From contig DGVV01000168.1 in the NCBI GenBank assembly GCA_002395085.1, positions 60,840-124,839 of the forward strand: 64,000 nt of DNA, read 5' to 3'. Under the pieces are notes generated by a model that saw nothing but the letters and a program-made list of their open reading frames with translations, was not told the DNA's origin and made no database searches. The position numbers were made by a program, and so were the translations under genes. Positions 3,496 through 45,726 of this stretch are shown piece after piece (the stretch's first letter is position 1; the number at the start of each line of letters is the position of its first letter). Source of the DNA: Ruminococcus sp. UBA4275 (lineage in GTDB: Bacteria; Bacillota; Clostridia; Oscillospirales; Ruminococcaceae).

Positions 3496-4612
3496 CGCCT
3501 AACAGTTTTTCACCGAATGCACCTCTGGTCTTTCTGTCAAGGATCCGTACAGAATCACGAATGACCAGATCAGGCACAAAAATCACATCCTTCTGCTGTG
3601 TATCCGGATCTGTCATCTGGTCGATCAGCATTTTTGCGGCGACTTCGCCCAGAAGCTGATGCGGGTGTCTGACAGTGGTCAGCGGAACATCGCAGATGGT
3701 CGAATATTTGGAGTCGTCAATGCCGACAACGGAAAGGCTGTCCGGCACACTGATGTCATGTTCTCTGCAAAAGCGCAGAAGATCGACGGCGAGCTTGTCA
3801 TTATAGCAGACAACAGCCGTAGAATTGACCAGCAATTCAATGAGCCGCTTCTGCTGATGCTGGAAGATGGCTGAGCGCTCTGACGTCGCAAACCACAGCA
3901 CATTCTTCTCAGCGGTACGGACATTGTGCGCCAGGCAGCTTCTCATGAAGCCGCCGTAGCGCTTATGTCCCTGAATATCATCGAGTGCAAAGATGCCGGA
4001 AATCTGCTTGTGGCCGCAGTCAAAGAGATAATCCGTAACGATCTGACCGGCAGAATCGTCATTCATCGCTGCGTAGGGGAAATCAGCCCATGGATATTTT
4101 GCATTGAAGAATACAAGCGGGATATTGTTCCGGCGAATCTCCTGATAGAGATCCATATTCGGATTCGGAAGCGCACTCTTAGAAGGCTCAACAATAAGCC
4201 CGTCCACGCCGTTCGAGATCATGGTTTTGAGTGCCTGCGCTTCTTCACAGACCTGATTATGGGTAATGGCAAGCTGCATGGCAATACCGGAGCTGTTCAG
4301 CACGGACTCAATGCCAGTGACGATCTGCGGAAAGATATAGTCACTGAAATAGGTCGAGACCACGCCGACGCGCTTCGAGCTTGCGCTGCCGTTTGAGATG
4401 CCGTTTTTCACGAAAGTACCGCTGCCGCGCACACGGCAGATGACACCGTCGCTCTCCAGGCACTTGAGCGCCTGCCGCACTGTCTGTCTGCTGACACTGT
4501 GAATGGCACACAGTTCCTTCTCAGACAAGAAGCGGTCATTGGGCTGGAGATGTTCCGAAACAATGTAGTTTTTGATCCAATCTACGATAGCGAGATACTT
4601 GTAGTCTTCCAT
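3449..4612 (-). CDS. GntR-family regulator with a LacI/PBP-type sugar-binding domain (AraR-like architecture)
   Basis: N-terminal GntR wHTH (LPNDRFLSEKELCAIHSVSRQTVRQALKCLESDGVI) followed by a PBP fold. The start was moved to ATG 4612, which is preceded by AAGGAGG. Confidence 0.85.
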   Translation of the reverse strand: MEDYKYLAIVDWIKNYIVSEHLQPNDRFLSEKELCAIHSVSRQTVRQALKCLESDGVICRVRGSGTFVKNGISNGSASSKRVGVVSTYFSDYIFPQIVTGIESVLNSSGIAMQLAITHNQVCEEAQALKTMISNGVDGLIVEPSKSALPNPNMDLYQEIRRNNIPLVFFNAKYPWADFPYAAMNDDSAGQIVTDYLFDCGHKQISGIFALDDIQGHKRYGGFMRSCLAHNVRTAEKNVLWFATSERSAIFQHQQKRLIELLVNSTAVVCYNDKLAVDLLRFCREHDISVPDSLSVVGIDDSKYSTICDVPLTTVRHPHQLLGEVAAKMLIDQMTDPDTQQKDVIFVPDLVIRDSVRILDRKTRGAFGEKLLGGDAVYGAGSSFRRLL

Positions 4613-4680
4613 AGGATCCTCCTTGAGCTTTTTCAAACATTGATATTAGGCAGATCGGATTTCGATGCTGATATGGGCGA

Positions 4681-6210
4681 TCAGCGAAGATCCAGATCTA
4701 CAAACTGAACCTGTCCGAACACGGCATTGCCGGTACGGTTGGTCATATCCTTAAGGGTAGAGATAATAGATGCGTCAATTCCTTCACTCTTCTTTGCAAC
4801 GGCGATCTTGTAATCAGCATTGATCGGGCCGGCAGAGGTTTCGAGAGAAGCAAGCAGGGCAGCGTGTGCCGTATTGACGTTGTTGATGACGGAATTGTAA
4901 CCGGTCGTATTGTTTTCGACCTGAATCATCACGACAAATTCATCCGAACCGGTACGGTAGACATTGCCGTTCGGGAAGACCTTTTTCAGCGTTTCAACCG
5001 TAGCGCGCAGCACCTGATCACCGATGTCATTGCCGTAACGGATATTGATGTCACTGAAATCGCTGATATTCAGCATGACGAAGTAGTAGGGGAATTCCTG
5101 ATTCGGTTCGAGACGCTCTGCGTCCATCGTAAAGGAAACGCGGTTGCTGACATCCGTGAGAATATCGCGGAACATCGCCGTTTCGAGGGATTCCTTTGTC
5201 TTTTCGTTGCGCAGGATCTGCGTAGAGAGCTTTTCGACAATCTGTTCCTGCTTCTTATTGATGAGATGGAACATCACAACGAGGCCGAACATCAGCAGAC
5301 CGATTATTGCGAAGAACACACGCATACTGATAGAGAGGCGGTAGATTTCCGATTTTGCAGCATCCAGCATCAGAATCCAGCCGTATTCTTTCATGTATGT
5401 GTAGGTTGAGATGTACTTGTCGTCATCATACTTGTACTCAAAATTACCGGAGTAATTCTTCGGATCTTTGCCGATTTCCTCGCAAAGTGTCAGGATTTCG
5501 GGCTGCTGGGTAACAGTCGAGACAAGAGATTTGTCAGGATTGAAGATGTACTTGTTATCTGCAGTATTGACCATGCTGTAGAATGAGGTGTCAATGCCGC
5601 GGATCTGAAGCTTATTCAGCGTATTGATGAGACCGTCGGTGTACAAACCGAGACCGACCAGACCGATCGGCTCATTGTTGTCATCCATAACAGCCATATA
5701 CATCGAGACGATCTGCTTGCCGGAAGCAGGGGAGACGATGATACCGGTATCGTAGACACCGGGACTTGCTGCCAGCATTGCATCATGAAGCTGTTTCAGA
5801 GGGCCTTCTTCCTTGCGGGTGATGATACCGACAACGCTCTTGTCCGTATGTGCAAGAACATGGGTATTCCACTCACTGACATAGATACCTTCCAGGTCCG
5901 GAATGTCTCCGGAAAATTTTTCAGTATACTTTTGCGCCGCAGTTTTTGCAGCGGGATCTTTCGGATTCAGCAGCACATCTGTAATCTGACCTGCACGCGC
6001 ATAGGCGCTCAGGGTTTTCTCAGCGTTCTCAATGTAGCTTTCGATGATGTGCGCACGTTCTTCAGTAATCGTAGCCATATGATCAAGGGAGCTTTGCCGT
6101 GTTCTGCTGCTGACGATTTTCGTAATCAGCAAAGTCAGGAGCAGCATGACCACCAACTCAATGATCAGCGCGATGTTTACGGTTGACATCTTTTTCTTTT
6201 TCTTGCTCAT
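4681..6210 (-). CDS. Membrane sensor protein: TM, Cache-like extracytoplasmic domain, TM, GGDEF-type domain with GSDEF motif
   Basis: 509 aa with two hydrophobic segments. The C-terminal diguanylate-cyclase-like domain ends ...GDQVLRATVETLKKVFPNGNVYRTGSDEFVVMI. Confidence 0.8.
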   Translation of the reverse strand: MSKKKKKMSTVNIALIIELVVMLLLTLLITKIVSSRTRQSSLDHMATITEERAHIIESYIENAEKTLSAYARAGQITDVLLNPKDPAAKTAAQKYTEKFSGDIPDLEGIYVSEWNTHVLAHTDKSVVGIITRKEEGPLKQLHDAMLAASPGVYDTGIIVSPASGKQIVSMYMAVMDDNNEPIGLVGLGLYTDGLINTLNKLQIRGIDTSFYSMVNTADNKYIFNPDKSLVSTVTQQPEILTLCEEIGKDPKNYSGNFEYKYDDDKYISTYTYMKEYGWILMLDAAKSEIYRLSISMRVFFAIIGLLMFGLVVMFHLINKKQEQIVEKLSTQILRNEKTKESLETAMFRDILTDVSNRVSFTMDAERLEPNQEFPYYFVMLNISDFSDINIRYGNDIGDQVLRATVETLKKVFPNGNVYRTGSDEFVVMIQVENNTTGYNSVINNVNTAHAALLASLETSAGPINADYKIAVAKKSEGIDASIISTLKDMTNRTGNAVFGQVQFVDLDLR

Positions 6211-6258
6211 TTCCGTAATTCCTTTCCATATACTTCCTTTTTCGTTTCAGGCATTCGG

Positions 6259-6862
6259 TTATTTCTTACCGAACAGACCGCCGAACAATTTCTTTACGCT
6301 GAAGGATTCCTCCTCCTCTTCTGGTTCGGCAGGGGCAATCTCATCCGCAGCATTCAGCAGCGAATTGACGCGGTCACGCAGATAATCTGCGCTGCTGGCT
6401 TTCGGAACTGCGGGGGCAGGATGCGCAGCATCCTCAGATCCTGCCGAACCGGACACTTTCGGCAGATTGCCCTGTAACTCCGAAAACTGACTGAGCTGCG
6501 AGATTGCAACGGCACGGTCGTGCATGAGAATCTCACATTTCTCGTTTTCCTTGTTCAGCGCCAGGATACATCGCAGGCAGTGATCACACGGCAGCAGAGG
6601 TGTACCGTCCGCAATGGACATCAGCAGGAGTCCGCGAATGATTGCTTCGCTGCCCGCCTGCATATTGCGGATTGCCTCCGCCTCAGCATGAATCTGCATG
6701 ATTTTGCCGCCCACACGATCACGGCGATTCAGTCCGACATAGATTCTGCCGGTCTGCGTGTATATAACACAGACAGTATCATCCGGAAAGACCTGCGCAC
6801 CGCTTTGCATTCGTGAGGAAGCAACCTCCCGCGCTTTTTGGAACAAGACATCGTAATTCATT
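6259..6862 (-). CDS. Cytidine/deoxycytidylate-deaminase-fold protein with a low-complexity tail and an amphipathic C-terminus
   Basis: Zinc motifs HAEAEAI and PCDHCLRC. The start was moved to ATG 6862, preceded by GGAAAGGAGGG. The tail reads ...PAEPEEEEESFSVKKLFGGLFGKK. Confidence 0.7.
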
Positions 6863-7236
6863 AGGGTTTTCCCTCCTTTCCATAACCGCAGCACAGCACC
6901 GGAACAGGGGATCATTCCAAGATGTCCGTACTGCTTGTTGTACGTATTATACAAGATATATTCAAGAATGTCAAGGTAGAATTTGCAGATTTAATGGACA
7001 AAGCGTATAAATCCATATAAAAACGTCGAATTTACTTTGTGCATCCATGTTCAAAATTTACGATTTGTATTGTAGTCAACTAAGTTTGCAGAATGGATAA
7101 TCGAAATAAACTCCGCAAAAATGCTGCGCATCTCCTGAACATATCGCAAAAAATGAGCAGTCTCATCCGATATGTACGGAATCACAGCGTTCCTGCGGAA
7201 AAGATACTTTAGATTTGAAATTTCACAGAGAACCCA

Positions 7237-7295: not shown

Positions 7296-7709
7296 ATGGA
7301 ACTCAGAGCAGACATTGATTCAGAAATAACAGAAATTCTCTACAGCCTAGGATTCCGCGCAAAACTGCTTGGTTTCCACTACATCCGCCGCGGTATTATG
7401 CTTGCAATAGAAGCAGGCGGCGGAAAACTCGTCATGAAAAAACTCTATGACGATATTGCGGCAGAATTTCAAACGACCGCATCCTGTGTTGAACGCTCCA
7501 TGCGCCATGCAGTGAAGCTTGCATGGGAACACAAAGAGGAATTGGATGGATTCCGGCGCTTGCCGCCTTTTATGCTGAACAGCAGTCCGCGCAATTCCAT
7601 GTTGATTACCTTTATCGCGGAAGAATTACGGACAAATCAGTCCGGCTGCTTCCAGAAGCCATCTCCGATCATCCGTCTTGACCATAAAGGGGCATATACC
7701 GGCTTCTGA
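7296..7709 (+). CDS. Stand-alone Spo0A C-terminal (DNA-binding) domain protein, no receiver domain
   Basis: 137 aa. The pattern LGF..KLLGFHYIRRGIMLA...LYDDIAAEFQTTASCVERSMRHAVKLAW matches the Spo0A_C signature (TT.S.VER.IRHAI..AW). GGAGGTG RBS. Confidence 0.75.
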   Translation: MELRADIDSEITEILYSLGFRAKLLGFHYIRRGIMLAIEAGGGKLVMKKLYDDIAAEFQTTASCVERSMRHAVKLAWEHKEELDGFRRLPPFMLNSSPRNSMLITFIAEELRTNQSGCFQKPSPIIRLDHKGAYTGF

Positions 7710-7829: not shown

Positions 7830-7854
7830 TGGAGGCGGCGGGAATTGAACCCGC
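7830..7854. repeat. attL core: displaced copy of the last 25 nt of tmRNA
   Basis: TGGAGGCGGCGGGAATTGAACCCGC is identical to 45383-45407. Confidence 0.85.
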
Positions 7855-7883: not shown

Positions 7884-8933
7884 TCACTTCGTGTCATGTT
7901 TCGTGTCATGTTCACAGTTTTCGAGATTACTGTACATTGCAGCGTATCGGCTATTCATTAGTGCATCGGCATTGCGCCGGTCCGCGCTGAAAGTATGCTG
8001 GTACACCTGCTGCATGGTCTGCGTGCCAGACCAGCCGCCGCGCTCGGCCGCAACACGATCCGGGATGCCCTGCGCGTGCATATCAGATGCCGCGATGTGG
8101 CGCAGATCGTGGAAGCGGACACCGGGAAAGCCTGCCGCAGCCATGCGCCGTGTGAACTGCTTGTAGATCGCCTGCCCGGTCAGCGTGGTCGCATAGTCCG
8201 TCTGTGCGGCGAGGATCATGTCGCGCAGGAAATCCGGCAGCTCTTCGATGCGGCGAGTTGCGTCCGTCTTCGCGAGCACTTTTTCGATGTGCTGGCCGTC
8301 CACCGTGACGATCACACGCTCGATCAGCAAGTGGTTGCCTTGTACGGCTTCTTTGCGAATACCGCGCACCTCGCTGACGCGCAGGCATAGGCACAGTGCC
8401 AGCAGCACGGGCAGCTCTGCCGGCTCGCCGTGCATCACGCGCATCACATCCTCGCTCGTCGGCAGGTCGCGCTTGAGCTGCTTGATCTTGCGTGGCAGCG
8501 TCGTCCGCAGCACAAAGTCCGGATTGTGCATTGCCAGCGCGGCGGCGAGCAAGCCGTGCGCATTGATCACCGTCTTGGCGCTGTGCGTCCGAGCCTGATC
8601 GTTGACGGCGATCTGGATCTGCTCCCGTGTGAGCCGGTCGATCGGGATCTCCATAAGCGATTGCAAATAGTTCCGGCGCATCTTGCGATACTCGTTTATT
8701 GTGGTCGGCGACAACACAGTATCTTTGGATGCGATGTACCGATCTATCGCCTCGCCTACTGTCATCCGCTCGACGGTCGTTTTCTTCTTTGCTGCATACT
8801 CTGCTGCCAGATACTCAGCCTGCTTTTTCGTAGATGCCGTAAACGATCTGTACACATCTTTGCCGTCTGCGTTTTTGCCGTCGTAGACGCGCACACGCCA
8901 GCTCCCAGACGGGAGCTTTTTTGCTTTTGCCAT
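7884..8933 (-). CDS. int: Tyrosine-type site-specific integrase
   Basis: N-terminal SAM-like domain and catalytic region with R...HDLRH...Y (VRFHDLRHIAAS, QQVYQHT). The start was moved to ATG 8933, which follows GGAGGTG. Confidence 0.95.
   Translation of the reverse strand: MAKAKKLPSGSWRVRVYDGKNADGKDVYRSFTASTKKQAEYLAAEYAAKKKTTVERMTVGEAIDRYIASKDTVLSPTTINEYRKMRRNYLQSLMEIPIDRLTREQIQIAVNDQARTHSAKTVINAHGLLAAALAMHNPDFVLRTTLPRKIKQLKRDLPTSEDVMRVMHGEPAELPVLLALCLCLRVSEVRGIRKEAVQGNHLLIERVIVTVDGQHIEKVLAKTDATRRIEELPDFLRDMILAAQTDYATTLTGQAIYKQFTRRMAAAGFPGVRFHDLRHIAASDMHAQGIPDRVAAERGGWSGTQTMQQVYQHTFSADRRNADALMNSRYAAMYSNLENCEHDTKHDTK
7889..7911. repeat. Arm-type repeat block (2 x CGTGTCATG) at the int-proximal arm
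   Basis: TCGTGTCATGTTTCGTGTCATGT is identical to 45245-45267. It overlaps the int stop region and encodes the HDTKHDTK tail. Confidence 0.6.
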
Positions 8934-8955
8934 GGTGTACACCTCCGATCACATA

Positions 8956-9657: not shown

Positions 9658-10305
9658 TCAAAATTCATGGAAAACGCCCTTGACGATGCCGACAACGCGG
9701 ATGCGCAGCACTTCCTCACCCTCGAAGCGACGCGGCGGATAGTACGGATTGATGCTTTGCAGCTCGATCCAGTCCGTGCCGTATACCACCCGCTTGACTA
9801 GGCCTTCCTCGCCGTCGAGCAGTACGACTGCGATGCTTCCGCTGTCCACACTCTCCTGCTTGTGGCACTGGATCAGGTCGCCGTCCTCAATTTTCGGGGA
9901 CATACTGTCCCCCGTAACTCTGATCGCGATTGTTTCTGCGGCTTCTGCGTCGCTGACGATCCGCAGCGGCATATAATCCACGATCTGCCCGTCTGCGTAT
10001 GCGCCGAAGCCGGCAGAAACGCTCTCGAAAACTGGTATCATCCGGAAACTATCATTGAAAACTGCGTTGATGTTGGATCCTTCGTCGATGCCCTTCAGGC
10101 CGTCCGTCTCCTCATCCAGCAGTGCGATCGGCGACACCCGCAGCGCCTCCGCGAGCTTCTGGATGCGGTCGCGTCTCATGTTGGAAATGTCACCGGATTC
10201 CCAGCGGCTGATAGATGCCTTGGACACGCCGACGCGCTGCGCGAGCTCGTCCTGTGTCATGCCGATCTGTTCGCGACGCATTGCGATTGCTAATCCTGTC
10301 TTCAT
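9658..10305 (-). CDS. CI/LexA-like phage repressor (XRE HTH plus S24 self-cleaving peptidase domain)
   Basis: HTH MTQDELAQRVGVSKASISRWESG. S24 motifs GDSMSP and LVKRV. The start was moved to ATG 10305, which follows AAGGGAG. Confidence 0.9.
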   Translation of the reverse strand: MKTGLAIAMRREQIGMTQDELAQRVGVSKASISRWESGDISNMRRDRIQKLAEALRVSPIALLDEETDGLKGIDEGSNINAVFNDSFRMIPVFESVSAGFGAYADGQIVDYMPLRIVSDAEAAETIAIRVTGDSMSPKIEDGDLIQCHKQESVDSGSIAVVLLDGEEGLVKRVVYGTDWIELQSINPYYPPRRFEGEEVLRIRVVGIVKGVFHEF

Positions 10306-10328
10306 TTCGATCACTCCCTTCTATCGTC

Positions 10329-10383: not shown

Positions 10384-10391
10384 GTTACGTT

Positions 10392-10411
10392 TTCGCAACA
10401 AAAGTTGCGAA
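10392..10411. promoter_or_regulatory. Operator palindrome TTCGCAAC-AAAA-GTTGCGAA
   Basis: Perfect 20-bp palindrome. It uses the same hexamer family as 10343-10358 but with the half-sites inverted. Confidence 0.6.
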
Positions 10412-10427
10412 AATGGGTTGACTTTTC

Positions 10428-10456
10428 GCAACAAACGTGCTATAATCGAATCATCG
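10428..10456 (+). promoter_or_regulatory. Rightward early promoter (PR-like)
   Basis: TTGACT, 17 nt, TATAAT. The spacer contains a CGCAAC half-site (10437-10442). Confidence 0.65.
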
Positions 10457-10496
10457 GTTACGGAAACGCAACCAAACAATTAAAAGGAGGGATCGC

Positions 10497-10748
10497 ATGA
10501 ACAAGATCGAGCTTGAGGTCGTTCTGCTGCGGAAGGGTAAGAGCATCGCCGAGCTGTCCGAGAAAATCGGCATGAACCGCGCGACATTTTACCGGAAGCT
10601 GCAAACCGGCAAGTTCGAGCGCTCCGAGATCATCCAGATCCGTGACGAGCTCGGACTAAGCGATGAGGAGATGCTCCTCATTTTTTTCAGCGGCGAAAGT
10701 TGCGTAAACGCAACAAACGCCGAGACGGCATCTGTGCAGGAGGTGTGA
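10497..10748 (+). CDS. Cro-like small HTH regulator
   Basis: 83 aa. HTH SIAELSEKIGMNRATFYRKLQTG. AAAGGAGGG RBS. Divergent from the repressor gene. Confidence 0.8.
   Translation: MNKIELEVVLLRKGKSIAELSEKIGMNRATFYRKLQTGKFERSEIIQIRDELGLSDEEMLLIFFSGESCVNATNAETASVQEV
10699..10714. promoter_or_regulatory. Distal operator-like palindrome GTTGCG-TAAA-CGCAAC inside the 3' end of the cro-like gene
   Basis: Perfect 16-bp palindrome with the same arrangement as 10343-10358, about 356 bp away. Confidence 0.5.
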
Positions 10749-42549: not shown

Positions 42550-43021
42550 GCCGGAAGCCGTCACCCTCTATACGAAGGAGGGAAAAACATTGCAGCACTT
42601 TATCAAGGCGATTTCCGCACTCTGCTGCTCGCTGGCATCGTTCCTGTGGGGAGAGCTCGACGGGCTTCTGATCGCGCTGATCGCATTTATCTGCTTGGAT
42701 TACATCAGCGGCCTGATCGTCGGCGCGACGCGGCACCGGCTCAACAGCGCGGTCAGCTTTCGCGGGCTGGCGAAAAAGATGTTTATTCTGGTAGTTGTTG
42801 CGGTGGCGCATATCATCGACACACAGATTCTTGGTGGCAGCGCTGCGGTGCTGCGCTCTGCCACTTGCGGCCTGTACATCGCCAACGAAGGGCTCAGCAT
42901 CCTCGAAAATGGCGGCAAGCTCGGCGTGCCGTATCCGAAAAAGCTGAAAGAGCTGCTCGAACAGCTTAAAAATGATTCTGAAAAAGGAGGAACAAACCGT
43001 GATCCAGATCACAAAGCCTGA
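42536..43021 (+). CDS. Holin (Phage_holin_4_1 / LL-H-like)
   Basis: Contains LIALIAFICLDYISGLIVG...SAVSFRGLAKKMFILVVVAVAHIID. The start is ATG 42536 or TTG 42589 (after AGGAGGG). Confidence 0.8.
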   Translation: MQPNEPEAVTLYTKEGKTLQHFIKAISALCCSLASFLWGELDGLLIALIAFICLDYISGLIVGATRHRLNSAVSFRGLAKKMFILVVVAVAHIIDTQILGGSAAVLRSATCGLYIANEGLSILENGGKLGVPYPKKLKELLEQLKNDSEKGGTNRDPDHKA

Positions 43022-43691
43022 GAAAGGCGATCCGTTCTTCAACAATGCCGCTGGCGGCGGCATCTCCACCTGCATCACGATCAAGAACTGTGAGCCCGGA
43101 CTGAACGTCCTGCCGAACTGCGTCGGCGGAGCGATCGGCGCATACAACAAAGCGGCTTGCGGTGACGGACCTGCCACGTTCAAGCATCTGAGCTACCCGC
43201 CCAACGCGGAAAACATCATGGCGCGAGCTGAGCAGGAAGGTCTTCCGATCTCGCAGAAGCCCGCTGTCGGCGCTCTGATCGTCTGGCAGAAAGGCGAAAC
43301 GCTCAGCAGCGCAGACGGTGCCGGACACGTTGCGTTCGTGACGTCCGTCGATGCAGACGGCACGATTCACACCGCAGAAAGCGAGTACGGCGGTCGCGCC
43401 TGGGTGAATCGTGCGTACAAGCCGCCGTATGTGTACGGCAGCGCTTACAAGTTCCTCGGATTTATCCACCAGCCCACGAAAAAGCCGGCAGTGTTGCACG
43501 AAGGTGATCACGGCGCGGAAGTCGAGCTGATGCAGGCGCGGCTTCATGCTCTTGGGTATATGCGCAAAGGCGAGATCGACGGCGACTTCGGCAAGATTAC
43601 CAAGGGCGCTGTGCTCTGCTTCCAGCTCGAAAACGGCCTCGATGTTGACGGCATCTGCGGCCCGGCAACGCAGGCGGCGCTTGCAAAATAA
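42999..43691 (+). CDS. Endolysin: CHAP peptidase domain plus PG_binding_1 domain
   Basis: GTG 42999 follows AAAGGAGG. The CHAP pattern is PNCVGGA...GALIVWQKG...GHVAFVTSV. The PG-binding domain is LHEGDHGAEVELMQARLHALGY...GPATQAAL. Confidence 0.9.
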   Translation: MIQITKPEKGDPFFNNAAGGGISTCITIKNCEPGLNVLPNCVGGAIGAYNKAACGDGPATFKHLSYPPNAENIMARAEQEGLPISQKPAVGALIVWQKGETLSSADGAGHVAFVTSVDADGTIHTAESEYGGRAWVNRAYKPPYVYGSAYKFLGFIHQPTKKPAVLHEGDHGAEVELMQARLHALGYMRKGEIDGDFGKITKGAVLCFQLENGLDVDGICGPATQAALAK

Positions 43692-43701
43692 CGATACAAC
43701 G

Positions 43702-43734
43702 AAACCGGCAGAGGATTCGTTCCCCTGCCGGTTT
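43702..43734. terminator. Bidirectional terminator between the endolysin and the reverse-strand accessory operon
   Basis: AAACCGGCAG..CTGCCGGTTT, flanked by A- and T-rich runs. Confidence 0.75.
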
Positions 43735-43740
43735 GCTTTA

Positions 43741-44178
43741 TTACTGCGCTGCTTCCATGATCCAGCGCTCAAGGAGCTTTCCCTGCGGAATGCCCTGCTT
43801 TGCAGCTTCCGCCTTCAACTTTGCCGCTGCCGCTGCGGAGACGTTGAGGCCAAGCGTCACGGTTTCGCCGCTCTCGTCAGGCTCGCCGAAAATCTCGCAG
43901 TACTCGTCACCGTCGAGATGGTCTTCCGCCCACTTCTGAGCCGCTTTGTACGTCATCGGCTCGATCTTCTCACCGCCGCACCACTCGTTCTGCCCGCAGC
44001 TCTTGCTGTACGGGCTTGCAGCATTTCCTTCGCCGTGAAGAAAAAACTCGCCGGTCTTCTTCTGATAGAGCGTTTCGCAGTACCAGTGGAAATCGCTGCG
44101 GTACGGATTCGGCTCGTATTCGCCACGCTTCTTTGCGGTGTCGGTATCGTACACCTTGCCATTGATAATCTTTTTCAT
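43741..44178 (-). CDS. Accessory operon gene 3: unknown N-terminal domain plus C-terminal ribbon-helix-helix module
   Basis: 145 aa. It starts MKKIINGKVYDTDTAKKRGEYEPNPY... and has 4 Cys. The C-terminus TVTLGLNVSAAAAAKLKAEAAKQGIPQGKLLERWIMEA fits a strand-helix-helix (CopG/Arc) pattern. AGGAGGAAAC RBS. Confidence 0.75.
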   Translation of the reverse strand: MKKIINGKVYDTDTAKKRGEYEPNPYRSDFHWYCETLYQKKTGEFFLHGEGNAASPYSKSCGQNEWCGGEKIEPMTYKAAQKWAEDHLDGDEYCEIFGEPDESGETVTLGLNVSAAAAAKLKAEAAKQGIPQGKLLERWIMEAAQ

Positions 44179-44233
44179 GATGTTTCCTCCTATTCATTGT
44201 GCCGGGTTTTGCCGCCCGGCTCGGCTGTTTTTA

Positions 44234-44599
44234 TCAGATTCGGTCTCTCGCAGAGAGCGACAGTTTGAACGTCTGCACGATCGTTCCGTCTGCATCTGCG
44301 TAGTCAGGATTGTTGCACGGAACTCTGAAGCAGTCGCCGCTCCAGAGCTTTCCGCTTTCGTGGCGAATCGTGACCAGTCCGCTGCTGCTGTTATGACGGA
44401 TCAACTTCACGATGCCGATCTTAGTAAGACCGATTTCCCGCGTAAGCTTTTCGCCGTCCTTCGCAGGATCCTCGCAAACCCAGCGCAAGGATTCGAGGAA
44501 CATGTCTTCCGTGAGGTTCGGAAGGAGCTCTTGCCAGTTCTTGAAAATCTTGCTCTTTCCTGCGAGAACGATTTTCTCTTTTGCTTCGTAGTTGTTCAT
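44234..44599 (-). CDS. Accessory operon gene 2: hypothetical protein
   Basis: 121 aa counted from ATG 44599, which follows AGGAGGTAAAAAA. An alternative ATG at 44617 overlaps the gene-1 stop (ATGA). No recognisable motif. Confidence 0.7.
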   Translation of the reverse strand: MNNYEAKEKIVLAGKSKIFKNWQELLPNLTEDMFLESLRWVCEDPAKDGEKLTREIGLTKIGIVKLIRHNSSSGLVTIRHESGKLWSGDCFRVPCNNPDYADADGTIVQTFKLSLSARDRI

Positions 44600-44613
44600 T
44601 TTTTTACCTCCTT

Positions 44614-45057
44614 TCATGCGAGCAGCGCTGCGACTGCTGCTGTGATTTTAGTGCCGAAATGGCGCTCCATCGTGCTGTCCATGTGCAGCGTGTTGTCGGT
44701 CAGATCAAAGTATGCCTTGCTTCCCATGATCCGGCGTGCTTCGCAGTTGCTGATGCTTTCACCGTCAACTGCTGCGCTGGAGATATTGCCGCTGCGATAG
44801 TAGCTGACTTCCATGCCGAGATCAGTTCCGTTGAAGTAAATCCGATCGTACACCTTGCCATTGGAGCCTTTCTTAGTCCAGCGACCGAACTTCTTCGTCA
44901 GCGCTTCGATGATGTCCTCGCGGCTCTGCTTCGCAGTTCCCTTTGCCTCTGCCCATGCCATCCGGAGGGCTTCCTTCATGTACTCGCGTGCCTTACCGCC
45001 GAACTGTGCGATTGCGTTCTTGACGATTTCCCATGCTCTCATCATGATCTTTTTCAT
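44614..45057 (-). CDS. Accessory operon gene 1: hypothetical protein
   Basis: 147 aa. It starts MKKIMMRAWEIVKNAIAQFGGKAREYMKEALRMAWAEAK... GGAGGTAAG RBS. No recognisable catalytic motif. Confidence 0.7.
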   Translation of the reverse strand: MKKIMMRAWEIVKNAIAQFGGKAREYMKEALRMAWAEAKGTAKQSREDIIEALTKKFGRWTKKGSNGKVYDRIYFNGTDLGMEVSYYRSGNISSAAVDGESISNCEARRIMGSKAYFDLTDNTLHMDSTMERHFGTKITAAVAALLA

Positions 45058-45109: not shown

Positions 45110-45138
45110 ATTATACCATATAGTTTCTAGAAAGTCAA
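45110..45138 (-). promoter_or_regulatory. Near-consensus sigma-70 promoter of the accessory operon
   Basis: On the minus strand: TTGACT, 17 nt, TATAAT. Confidence 0.65.
45122..45135. promoter_or_regulatory. Operator O1 AGTTTCTAGAAAGT (core TTTCTAGAAA) overlapping the -35 and spacer
   Basis: 10-bp perfect palindromic core. Confidence 0.55.
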
Positions 45139-45153
45139 TAGAAAATCACAAAA

Positions 45154-45167
45154 AGTTTCTAGAAACT
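45154..45167. promoter_or_regulatory. Operator O2 AGTTTCTAGAAACT
   Basis: Perfect 14-bp palindrome whose centre lies 32 bp from the O1 centre. Confidence 0.55.
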
Positions 45168-45195
45168 CCAACTTTGTATACATGCACAAATATAA

Positions 45196-45203
45196 AGTTT
45201 CTA
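45196..45203. promoter_or_regulatory. Operator half-site AGTTTCTA
   Basis: Third copy of the half-site, 42 bp from the start of O2. Confidence 0.35.
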
Positions 45204-45244
45204 CATTGTCAAATATGCTGAATGCGCCGTAAAAAAAGCGCATC

Positions 45245-45275
45245 TCGTGTCATGTTTCGTGTCATGTCGTGTCAT
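45245..45275. repeat. Arm-type repeat block (3 x CGTGTCAT) at the attR-proximal arm
   Basis: TCGTGTCATGTTTCGTGTCATGT (identical to 7889-7911) followed by CGTGTCAT. Confidence 0.6.
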
Positions 45276-45324
45276 AAAATCGCGTGATTTGACCACGTTT
45301 TACTGTTGCTAGTTCACAAACAAG

Positions 45325-45379: not shown

Positions 45380-45726
45380 TGGTGGAGGCGGCGGGAATTG
45401 AACCCGCGTCCGAAAACCGATCCATCCGATCATCTACGAGTGTAGTTTGTCTTTTACATTCCCGCACCGCACCGCCGGCAAACAGGCTTTACGGATAGGT
45501 AGCGCATTGTGCGACTGCTGCCTATGCGCGTCAGCAGCAGACGTTCACCGCGTCATGACGCCAGACACCGAATACGCGGTCATCTTCGGGCTGACGGACG
45601 GCCTTAAGCGGCCATCAGAACGGAATCGTTGTTCTCGTTTAAATTTATAAGGTTGCACATTTTACGGGTTATGCGCCCGACTCGCCAATCGAACTTCCCA
45701 GCCCCCGTCGAAACCTTTACGCCCCC
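45380..45726 (-). ncRNA. ssrA: tmRNA (SsrA), about 347 nt with an encoded CCA
   Basis: The 5' end GGGGGCGTAAAGGTTTCGACGGGG pairs with the 3' end CGCCTCC-A-CCA and includes a G3-U pair. The T-arm is GGGTTCAATTCCCGCC. The internal tag frame ...AAC GAG AAC AAC GAT TCC GTT CTG ATG GCC GCT TAA occupies 45604-45639. smpB is nearby. Confidence 0.9.
45383..45407. repeat. attR core, which forms the 3' end of the functional tmRNA
   Basis: Identical to 7830-7854. Confidence 0.85.

Follow-up and report, generated by a model that had tools for sequence, protein, structure and literature searches.

A probable self-repressed accessory operon of acr-aca-like layout, anchored by a two-domain, predicted ribbon-helix-helix protein family, in a Ruminococcus prophage

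The subject of this work is a three-gene operon at one end of a prophage of Ruminococcus sp. UBA4275, contained in a 64-kb stretch of contig DGVV01000168.1 (hereafter the window, meaning the whole stretch that was analysed). The three genes, termed g1, g2 and g3 in the order of transcription, lie on the minus strand between the terminator of the phage endolysin gene and the attachment site attR. The chances are put at about even that in these genes a temperate Ruminococcus phage carries an accessory operon that is self-repressed, acr-aca-like and of the anti-defence type (Acr, anti-CRISPR; Aca, anti-CRISPR-associated regulator). Within this reading the regulatory logic, that of an operon repressed by its own last product, appears likely from the sequence comparisons, and an anti-defence role, argued by analogy, is a prospect that falls a little below even. 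The last gene, g3, belongs to a large, previously undescribed family of two-domain anchor proteins, in which an N-terminal domain (N-domain) is fused to a predicted ribbon-helix-helix (RHH) tail. An earlier reading of the letters alone (the first-pass annotation) had reported minus-strand open reading frames (ORFs) of 147, 121 and 145 amino acids (aa), and all three were present, each with GGAGG 7–8 nt ahead of its ATG. The operon and its control region comprised the following features.

43702–43734, no strand assigned: bidirectional terminator hairpin, common to the operon and the convergent endolysin gene, identified by folding
43741–44178, minus strand: g3, 145 aa, last gene of the operon and conserved anchor
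44201–44220, minus strand: intercistronic hairpin with a 6-bp GC stem and an 8-nt loop, just before the g3 ribosome-binding site (RBS)
44234–44599, minus strand: g2, 121 aa, rare cargo
44614–45057, minus strand: g1, 147 aa, first gene of the operon, basic product of pI 9.5
45110–45138, minus strand: sigma-70-type promoter, with −35 TTGACT at 45138–45133, a 17-nt spacer and an extended −10 TGgTATAAT (hexamer 45115–45110)
45122–45135, no strand assigned: putative operator O2, with its TTTCTAGAAA core at 45124–45133, in the spacer and touching the −35
45154–45167, no strand assigned: putative operator O1, a perfect 14-bp palindrome AGTTTCTAGAAACT, its centre 32 bp from that of O2
45172–45190, no strand assigned: conserved imperfect inverted repeat, TTTGTGCATGTATACAAAG in the operon sense, upstream of O1
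45196–45205, no strand assigned: third operator-like half-site, the degenerate AGTTTCTACA, with 75 % identity to O2

The promoter agrees with the consensus at 11 of 12 positions and has the TG of an extended −10 in addition, in keeping with the near-consensus promoter of its own that had been proposed for the operon; the scanned region held two promoter-like sites, against 0.8 expected. The 10-bp palindrome core TTTCTAGAAA occurred exactly twice in the window, at 45124–45133 and 45156–45165, and the site between the −35 and the −10 (O2) was kept in related loci. Since O2 lies inside the core promoter, binding of g3 there should repress transcription, and g3 very probably shuts off its own promoter. 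Further upstream, the TTTGTGCATGTATACAAAG element remained constant across operator types in the promoter contexts compared (the window, L001, L005, L011, L012, L015 and L027) and is probably the site of a different conserved factor, of phage or host. No significant RNA structure was detected in the 5′ untranslated region (UTR) of the operon by folding z-scores.

For comparison, about 185 related loci were collected from viral contigs, genomes, metagenomes, phage records and plasmids. Loci with different cargo shared a promoter scaffold consisting of the TTTGTGCA..TATACAAA repeat, O1, TTGAC-O2-CTATGnTATAAT and a conserved 5′ UTR and RBS. The operators were identical or near-identical within a locus and different between loci: TTTCTAGAAA was paired with the RHH strand xLGLxVS (the window and L001), TTTCTACAAA with ALNLxIS (L011 and L027) and TTTGTGGCAA with KMTVRLS, the last in two phage groups of different cargo (L005–8, L012 and L091). 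Among 21 non-redundant loci, selected for an operator pair matching within one mismatch, operator distance was correlated with the distance between RHH tails (Mantel r 0.32, P = 0.003; partial on N-domain distance, P = 0.001), and no correlation was found with N-domain distance (Mantel P = 0.26). Dual-operator promoters were found upstream of 28 of the 107 RHH-bearing homologues, compared with none of the 28 RHH-less ones (Fisher P = 6e-4), and the 423 kb upstream of g3 homologues contained 43 such promoters in the sense orientation and none in antisense. Given this co-variation of operator and RHH, together with the absence of dual-operator promoters upstream of RHH-less homologues, the case for binding of the two operators by the g3 tail is good, if indirect. 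In L005 the cassette of promoter, operators and 5′ UTR was present twice (4300–4440 and 5385–5520) with the same operator, TTTGTGGCAA, and therefore one g3 would control two successive transcription units. The operators of L013 (4320–4410), TTTAGCCAAA and TTTGGCTAAA, are reverse complements of each other and not direct copies, which is consistent with a symmetric dimeric binder on a pseudo-palindrome.

The g3 protein consists of an acidic (pI 4.9), β-rich N-domain, from residue 1 to about 103, and a basic tail of some 40 residues (about aa 106–145). In the AlphaFold2 (AF2) model (predicted local distance difference test score, pLDDT, 86) an extended segment was followed by two C-terminal helices; the monomer shows both helices of an RHH, the strand of which forms only in the dimer. 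When g3 itself was compared with RHH profiles only BrnA was matched, and weakly (E 0.047), and its relatives matched RHH_1 (2.4e-4), NikA-like (7.8e-5), HicB (4.4e-4) and RHH_3 (7e-7) in Pfam. Aca14 of Pasteurella multocida is an RHH protein that has been shown experimentally to regulate acr operons (bioRxiv 10.64898/2026.07.27.740549). The tail of g3 was aligned with the RHH of Aca14 by hhalign (E 2e-4, 47 % probability, 21 % identity) over 39 RHH columns only, and BLASTP gave no alignment between the two proteins, so far as sequence can tell placing them in the same fold class and in different families. The matches of the relatives, the Aca14 alignment and the modelled helices together support the RHH-like character that had been ascribed to the last 40 or so residues.

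The N-domain matched no Pfam family and no PDB entry, either by sequence and profile or by fold in Foldseek. The best Foldseek match of g3 in the PDB was Pur-alpha, which was not significant (E 0.5), no HicB entry was among the PDB matches of the model, and a search of BFVD returned uncharacterised phage proteins only. Clustering of the N-domain at 50 % identity gave 2728 clusters. Among its best 150 representatives, 20 consisted of the domain alone, 96 carried in addition a tail of about 40 aa and 34 were longer, the last including four fusions to HTH_3 and one to ROS/MucR. For a domain without annotation its range was unusually broad, taking in Firmicutes, Bacteroidota, Proteobacteria, haloarchaeal plasmids and an inovirus; it is encoded beside Zot in the 5.8-kb inovirus bajarodino virus 27 (L102, 1195–1548) and beside a DUF262 gene on the Halorubrum megaplasmid pHLAC01 (L104, 2501–2812). 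The view of g3 as a repressor gene and nothing more was not supported: two thirds of it is taken up by a separate domain, which is highly conserved and is also found by itself, so that g3 is probably bifunctional.

In phages g3 was typically located between the lysis genes and an integrase or recombinase gene, as in the window. The position immediately upstream was occupied by dozens of unrelated families and almost never by a Pfam family. The commonest partner was the g1 family, ahead of g3 in 30 of 96 loci and directly adjacent in 17, and a 330-aa AcrVA2-like gene was immediately upstream of g3 in seven loci. The other upstream genes were small, mutually unrelated and often acidic in product (median pI 5.3). 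PADLOC models matched neither g1, g2 or g3 (E up to 1) nor any of 45 cargo genes from the related loci. The numbers of clusters also show small variable cargo upstream of a conserved regulator, as in acr-aca operons: there were at least 1846 clusters of g3 at 90 % identity, compared with 29 homologue clusters of g1 and 22 of g2. Co-conservation of the three genes, the lack of which the first-pass annotation had named among the results that would refute it, was not seen, in that g3 is a widespread anchor, g1 a frequent partner and g2 was found outside the window in one other phage group only. The trio of the window is thus one filling of a cassette site and no co-evolving unit; such turnover of cargo is the pattern expected of an acr-aca-type locus.

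Residues 4–63 of g1 matched the Pfam family PF07410, Phage_Gp111 (E 5e-17; 62.9 bits against a cut-off of 27.1), although only positions 2–60 of the 117 in the model were covered; 13 of 19 members of the g1 family matched it. This Gp111-type domain consists of three helices, and the remainder of g1 is a conserved α/β C-terminal domain without a family, which in actinobacterial relatives is joined to MerR/HTH_17 domains instead. The AF2 model of g1 (pLDDT 89) had no fold neighbour in the PDB by Foldseek, the best E values for g1 and g3 being 0.3–0.5. The nearest public copy of g1 came from a metagenome-assembled genome of Ruminococcus sp., and relatives without g3 were found in Streptococcus thermophilus phages and in Chromobacterium and Streptomyces elements. 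A literature search on Gp111/PF07410 returned only papers about an unrelated drug.

For g2 no family, profile or PDB sequence match was obtained, and Pfam scans of all family members gave only noise. The motif LTRE (residues 52–55) is invariant among its homologues and SARD (116–119) nearly so. In L005–L008 a homologue with 86 % identity lies one base upstream of the AcrVA2-like gene. The ATGA overlap of g1 and g2 that had been suggested does exist, as an ATG at 44617 over the g1 stop that would give 127 aa, but it is not the conserved start; this is the second ATG, which also has its GGAGG, because the homologues begin at the MNN position of the 121-aa form.

The GC hairpin between g2 and g3, noted earlier from the letters, proved real and conserved, whereas its stability was unremarkable (ordinary thermodynamics, z −1.3). 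About 11 related loci had kept it at their cassette junctions, and two compensatory pair changes were present among six sequences compared. It has the form GCCGGG, an 8-nt loop and CCCGGC and in every case was on the sense strand, a few bases ahead of the RBS of the next cistron and at a junction of cargo cassettes. The same hairpin was located elsewhere as follows.

L005, 5289–5315
L005, 5954–5980
L011, 481–507
L017, 68–94
L089, 4963–4989
L115 and L151, 2451–2496
L059, 2671–2718
L085, 4380–4429

A U-tract is missing, and for this reason the hairpin is not regarded as a terminator; it may act in the processing or the stability of RNA, or else be a recombination joint.

An anti-defence role is preferred for the operon because its architecture is that of acr-aca loci, with a conserved DNA-binding anchor, hypervariable cargo and a palindrome over the promoter core. 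The original comparison with acr-aca operons, of small ORFs followed by the gene of a DNA-binding repressor under an operator-laden promoter, was supported for architecture and regulation and is plausible for function. The preference also rests on the AcrVA2-like gene that adjoins g3 in seven loci, on the inclusion in the Gp111 family of a gene upstream of acrIIA5, and on the failure of the trio and the 45 cargo genes to match models of defence systems in PADLOC. Between defence and anti-defence, both of which had been proposed, the co-variation of operator and RHH and the AcrVA2-like and AcrIIA5 neighbourhoods favour the latter. The AcrVA2-like gene was recognised by a PF26125 match in the precomputed Pfam table, and is supported indirectly by the distribution of its homologues, which are carried by Moraxella phages and by 609 conjugative plasmids. 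In phage D4276 (L010) the Gp111-family gene D4276_027 lies immediately upstream of acrIIA5. A conserved gene upstream of acrIIA5 was the neighbourhood marker that led to AcrIIA6 (Hynes et al. 2018, PMC6060171), and from its position we infer that this marker is D4276_027. In the D4276 operon acrIIA5 is followed (4285–7183) by two hypothetical genes and by genes resembling those of PAPS reductase and ParB; PAPS-reductase genes under Aca control are depicted in the 2026 Aca preprint (its Supplementary Figure S10).

In the proposed model, the promoter next to attP/attR would drive g1, g2 and g3 towards the lysis genes, and transcription would end at the bidirectional terminator. Dimers of the g3 RHH tail would bind O1 and O2 cooperatively and block RNA polymerase; the 32-bp spacing of the operators, three helical turns, would fit cooperative binding by two dimers. 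On entry of phage DNA into a cell free of g3 the operon would therefore be expressed in a burst, and afterwards be kept at a low steady level, in the lysogen included. In this scheme g1 and g2 would be exchangeable cargo, most likely with the role of neutralising host immunity, and the acidic N-domain of g3 would be a separate effector or sensor module, comparable to those in AcrIIA1, AcrIF24 and AcrIE10. A more specific proposal, which we regard as somewhat unlikely, is that the N-domain is a new and very widespread anti-defence effector, for example an orphan antitoxin that disarms toxins of the MazF/PemK type or other abortive-infection toxins, fused in phages to an RHH that switches specificity, which would unite effector and regulator in a single protein.

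Several observations weigh against this interpretation of the operon. The anti-defence call is made by guilt by association: g1, g2 and g3 had no homology to any known Acr or anti-defence protein in general libraries, none of which was dedicated to anti-defence. The AcrVA2-like label came from the precomputed table only, and a scan with an older Pfam version gave no match. On the side of regulation, the distance between RHH strands alone (10 residues) was not significantly correlated with operator distance (Mantel P = 0.10), the grouping of operators with RHH types could in part reflect shared ancestry, and the strict dual-operator pattern was present in only about one quarter to 40 % of RHH-bearing loci. 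In addition, a basic g1 with an acidic, RHH-bearing g3 is also the charge pattern of a toxin–antitoxin pair, and two distant g3 homologues are encoded just upstream of PemK/MazF toxin genes.

These last points lead to the main rival explanation, in which g3 would be an antitoxin of HicB-like architecture, with a toxin-binding N-domain and an RHH, and the toxin would be either g1, in toxin-first order and acting in prophage stabilisation or abortive infection, or absent, which would leave g3 an orphan antitoxin. On the Methylobacterium plasmid NZ_CP155001 (L103, 2501–3363) a 139-aa g3 homologue with N-domain and RHH, annotated as HicB, ends 8 nt before a PemK/MazF gene, and in L077 (3970–4781) the gene after that of a stand-alone N-domain encodes a PemK toxin (E 8e-26), so that in some lineages the domain may neutralise toxins. 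The HicB label of the plasmid homologue, however, is due to its RHH part, PF05534 matching aa 81–128, and no PemK/MazF gene was found in the window, in the other loci of the comparison set of about 185 (tblastn with two PemK toxins) or in an extra metagenome scan. Because no further MazF cases were found, the toxin–antitoxin relationship is kept as a rival and not as the main call. Fusion of the N-domain to RHH, HTH_3 or ROS/MucR modules resembles antitoxin families, but no antitoxin fold, that of HicB included, was a neighbour of the g3 model in the PDB, and neither a toxin family or fold was matched by g1 nor a toxin family by g2. The opposite charges of g1 (pI 9.5) and the g3 N-domain (pI 4.9), and the rank of g1 as commonest upstream partner (30 of 96 loci), would suit a pair; yet two thirds of the loci with g3 have no g1, relatives of g1 occur without g3, g2 stands between the two in the window, and the upstream partners differ from toxins in being mostly acidic and hypervariable. 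All told we consider this explanation unlikely. It also points to a definite mechanism for the N-domain, the neutralisation of toxins, which in a phage that has no toxin gene would itself be counter-defence.

An early-gene cassette regulated by g3 and with no role in immunity, serving host takeover, the modulation of lysis and lysogeny or DNA/RNA metabolism, is rather unlikely. All three proteins are without functional annotation in NCBIfam, PHROGs and PADLOC and the models of g1 and g3 without PDB neighbours, and work related to nucleic acids is hinted at by the MerR/HTH_17 fusions of the g1 C-terminal domain and by Pur-alpha, a nucleic-acid binder, as the best, non-significant fold match of g3. 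Such a cassette is hard to reconcile with hypervariable cargo behind a conserved regulator, the signature of an arms race and not of a housekeeping phage function, or with the direct neighbourhood links to AcrVA2-like genes and AcrIIA5. The operon might also be a moron that protects the lysogen, by superinfection exclusion or as a new defence system, with g3 merely setting the level of expression. The position at the prophage end, the orientation independent of the late operon, an autorepressed promoter that would give steady, low, CI-independent expression in the lysogen, and the relatives that mostly adjoin integrase genes are all as a moron would have them. This explanation is nevertheless quite improbable, given that PADLOC was blank for the three proteins and the 45 cargo genes and that the annotated neighbours are anti-CRISPR-like and not defence-like. 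Gp111-family genes, moreover, occupy the same position beside acrIIA5 in virulent streptococcal phages (PMC6060171), and homologues of g3 are present in the 5.8-kb inovirus and on plasmids; because of these relatives counter-defence fits better than protection of a lysogen.

As in the operons of Aca14, the RHH protein comes last, after small variable genes, an inverted repeat lies over the core promoter, the same operator may be set on several neighbouring promoters (here in L005, which resembles multi-operon control) and known acr genes are among the cargo of related loci. Aca14 differs in being a stand-alone RHH of 67 aa, whereas g3 has a conserved domain of 103 aa ahead of its RHH; its hosts are Pasteurellaceae, in contrast to the Clostridia phages here, and the operators are unrelated. 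A parallel for the two-domain layout is AcrIE10, an N-terminal RHH plus an Acr domain and likewise an experimentally shown RHH regulator of an acr operon (PMC13530269), with AcrIIA1 and AcrIF24, each a helix-turn-helix (HTH) and an Acr domain as cited in that paper. These proteins share with g3, a putative autorepressor, the union of a DNA-binding module and a separate globular domain in one chain, a palindromic operator over the −35/−10, the two copies of which suggest binding as a dimer of dimers, and relatives in which the DNA-binding module is missing or swapped (RHH, HTH_3 or ROS/MucR). The domain order of g3 is reversed, however, with the effector-like domain first and the RHH last, and its N-domain has no sequence or fold similarity to solved Acr proteins.

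The acr locus of S. thermophilus phages (PMC6060171) resembles the operon in having the N-terminal domain of Gp111, present in g1, in the first gene of a small post-lysis operon, but g1 has another C-terminal domain and g2 and g3 are unrelated to AcrIIA5 and AcrIIA6. HicB-type antitoxins likewise combine a globular N-terminal domain with a C-terminal RHH (or HTH) autorepressor, and a proteobacterial g3 homologue ahead of a MazF toxin gene is annotated as HicB; in contrast to these, g3 has no toxin gene beside it, either in the window or in nearly all relatives, and no HicB fold match was obtained.

The prophage of 37.6 kb is integrated in the 3′ end of a tmRNA gene. Its boundaries and principal landmarks were as follows.

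7884–8942: tyrosine integrase gene (Pfam)
9658–10314: CI-like S24 repressor gene (Pfam)
42972–43691: CHAP/peptidoglycan-binding endolysin gene (Pfam)
45245–45277, no strand assigned: TCGTGTCATGT direct repeats between the operon promoter and attR, also present beside attL at 7889–7911
45380–45726, minus strand: tmRNA gene (ARAGORN)
45383–45407, no strand assigned: attR core, the 25-bp repeat TGGAGGCGGCGGGAATTGAACCCGC, second copy of 7830–7854, within the 3′ end of the tmRNA gene

A holin was also confirmed by Pfam. With the tmRNA gene, the 25-bp att core, the integrase and the endolysin in place, the operon was borne out as an independent unit in the last cargo slot before attR. The hairpin at 43702–43734 after the endolysin gene, which had been called bidirectional, gave a strong fold on either strand (−26.6 and −22.8 kcal/mol; z −5.6 and −5.0). 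The TCGTGTCATGT repeats lie just inside each end of the prophage and in the circular phage would flank attP; they are probably arm-type binding sites of the integrase. Repeated palindromic motifs (TTTTCGCAACAAAAGTTGCGAAAA and variants) were found at 10384–10475 and 10685–10717, in the region from the CI-like repressor gene to the first plus-strand early gene. These are likely operators of the lysis–lysogeny switch, with no relation to those of g3. On the host side, just outside attL, a 137-aa ORF at 7296–7709 on the plus strand encodes only the C-terminal DNA-binding domain of Spo0A (E 2e-22).

Most known anti-defence loci have been found by way of a handful of HTH-type Aca regulators, mainly from Proteobacteria and also from a few Firmicutes, and to our knowledge the first reports of RHH-type regulators for loci of this kind date from 2026. 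Phage-immunity biology in gut Clostridia is little explored and experimentally difficult. The contribution of g3 to this field would be a two-domain family, large and so far unannotated, which serves as the anchor of variable operons in gut Clostridia phages and could be a marker for new phage counter-defence genes. The conserved promoter scaffold with its swappable operators would represent a natural set of orthogonal repressor–operator pairs. If the N-domain is an effector, it would be among the most widely distributed counter-defence domains known, and if it is an antitoxin, the evolution of toxin–antitoxin systems would be linked to phage counter-defence. Should the N-domain be a widespread anti-defence effector fused to its own regulator, g3 would be a new Aca-like marker that opens thousands of hypervariable cargo genes of gut phages to discovery by guilt by association.

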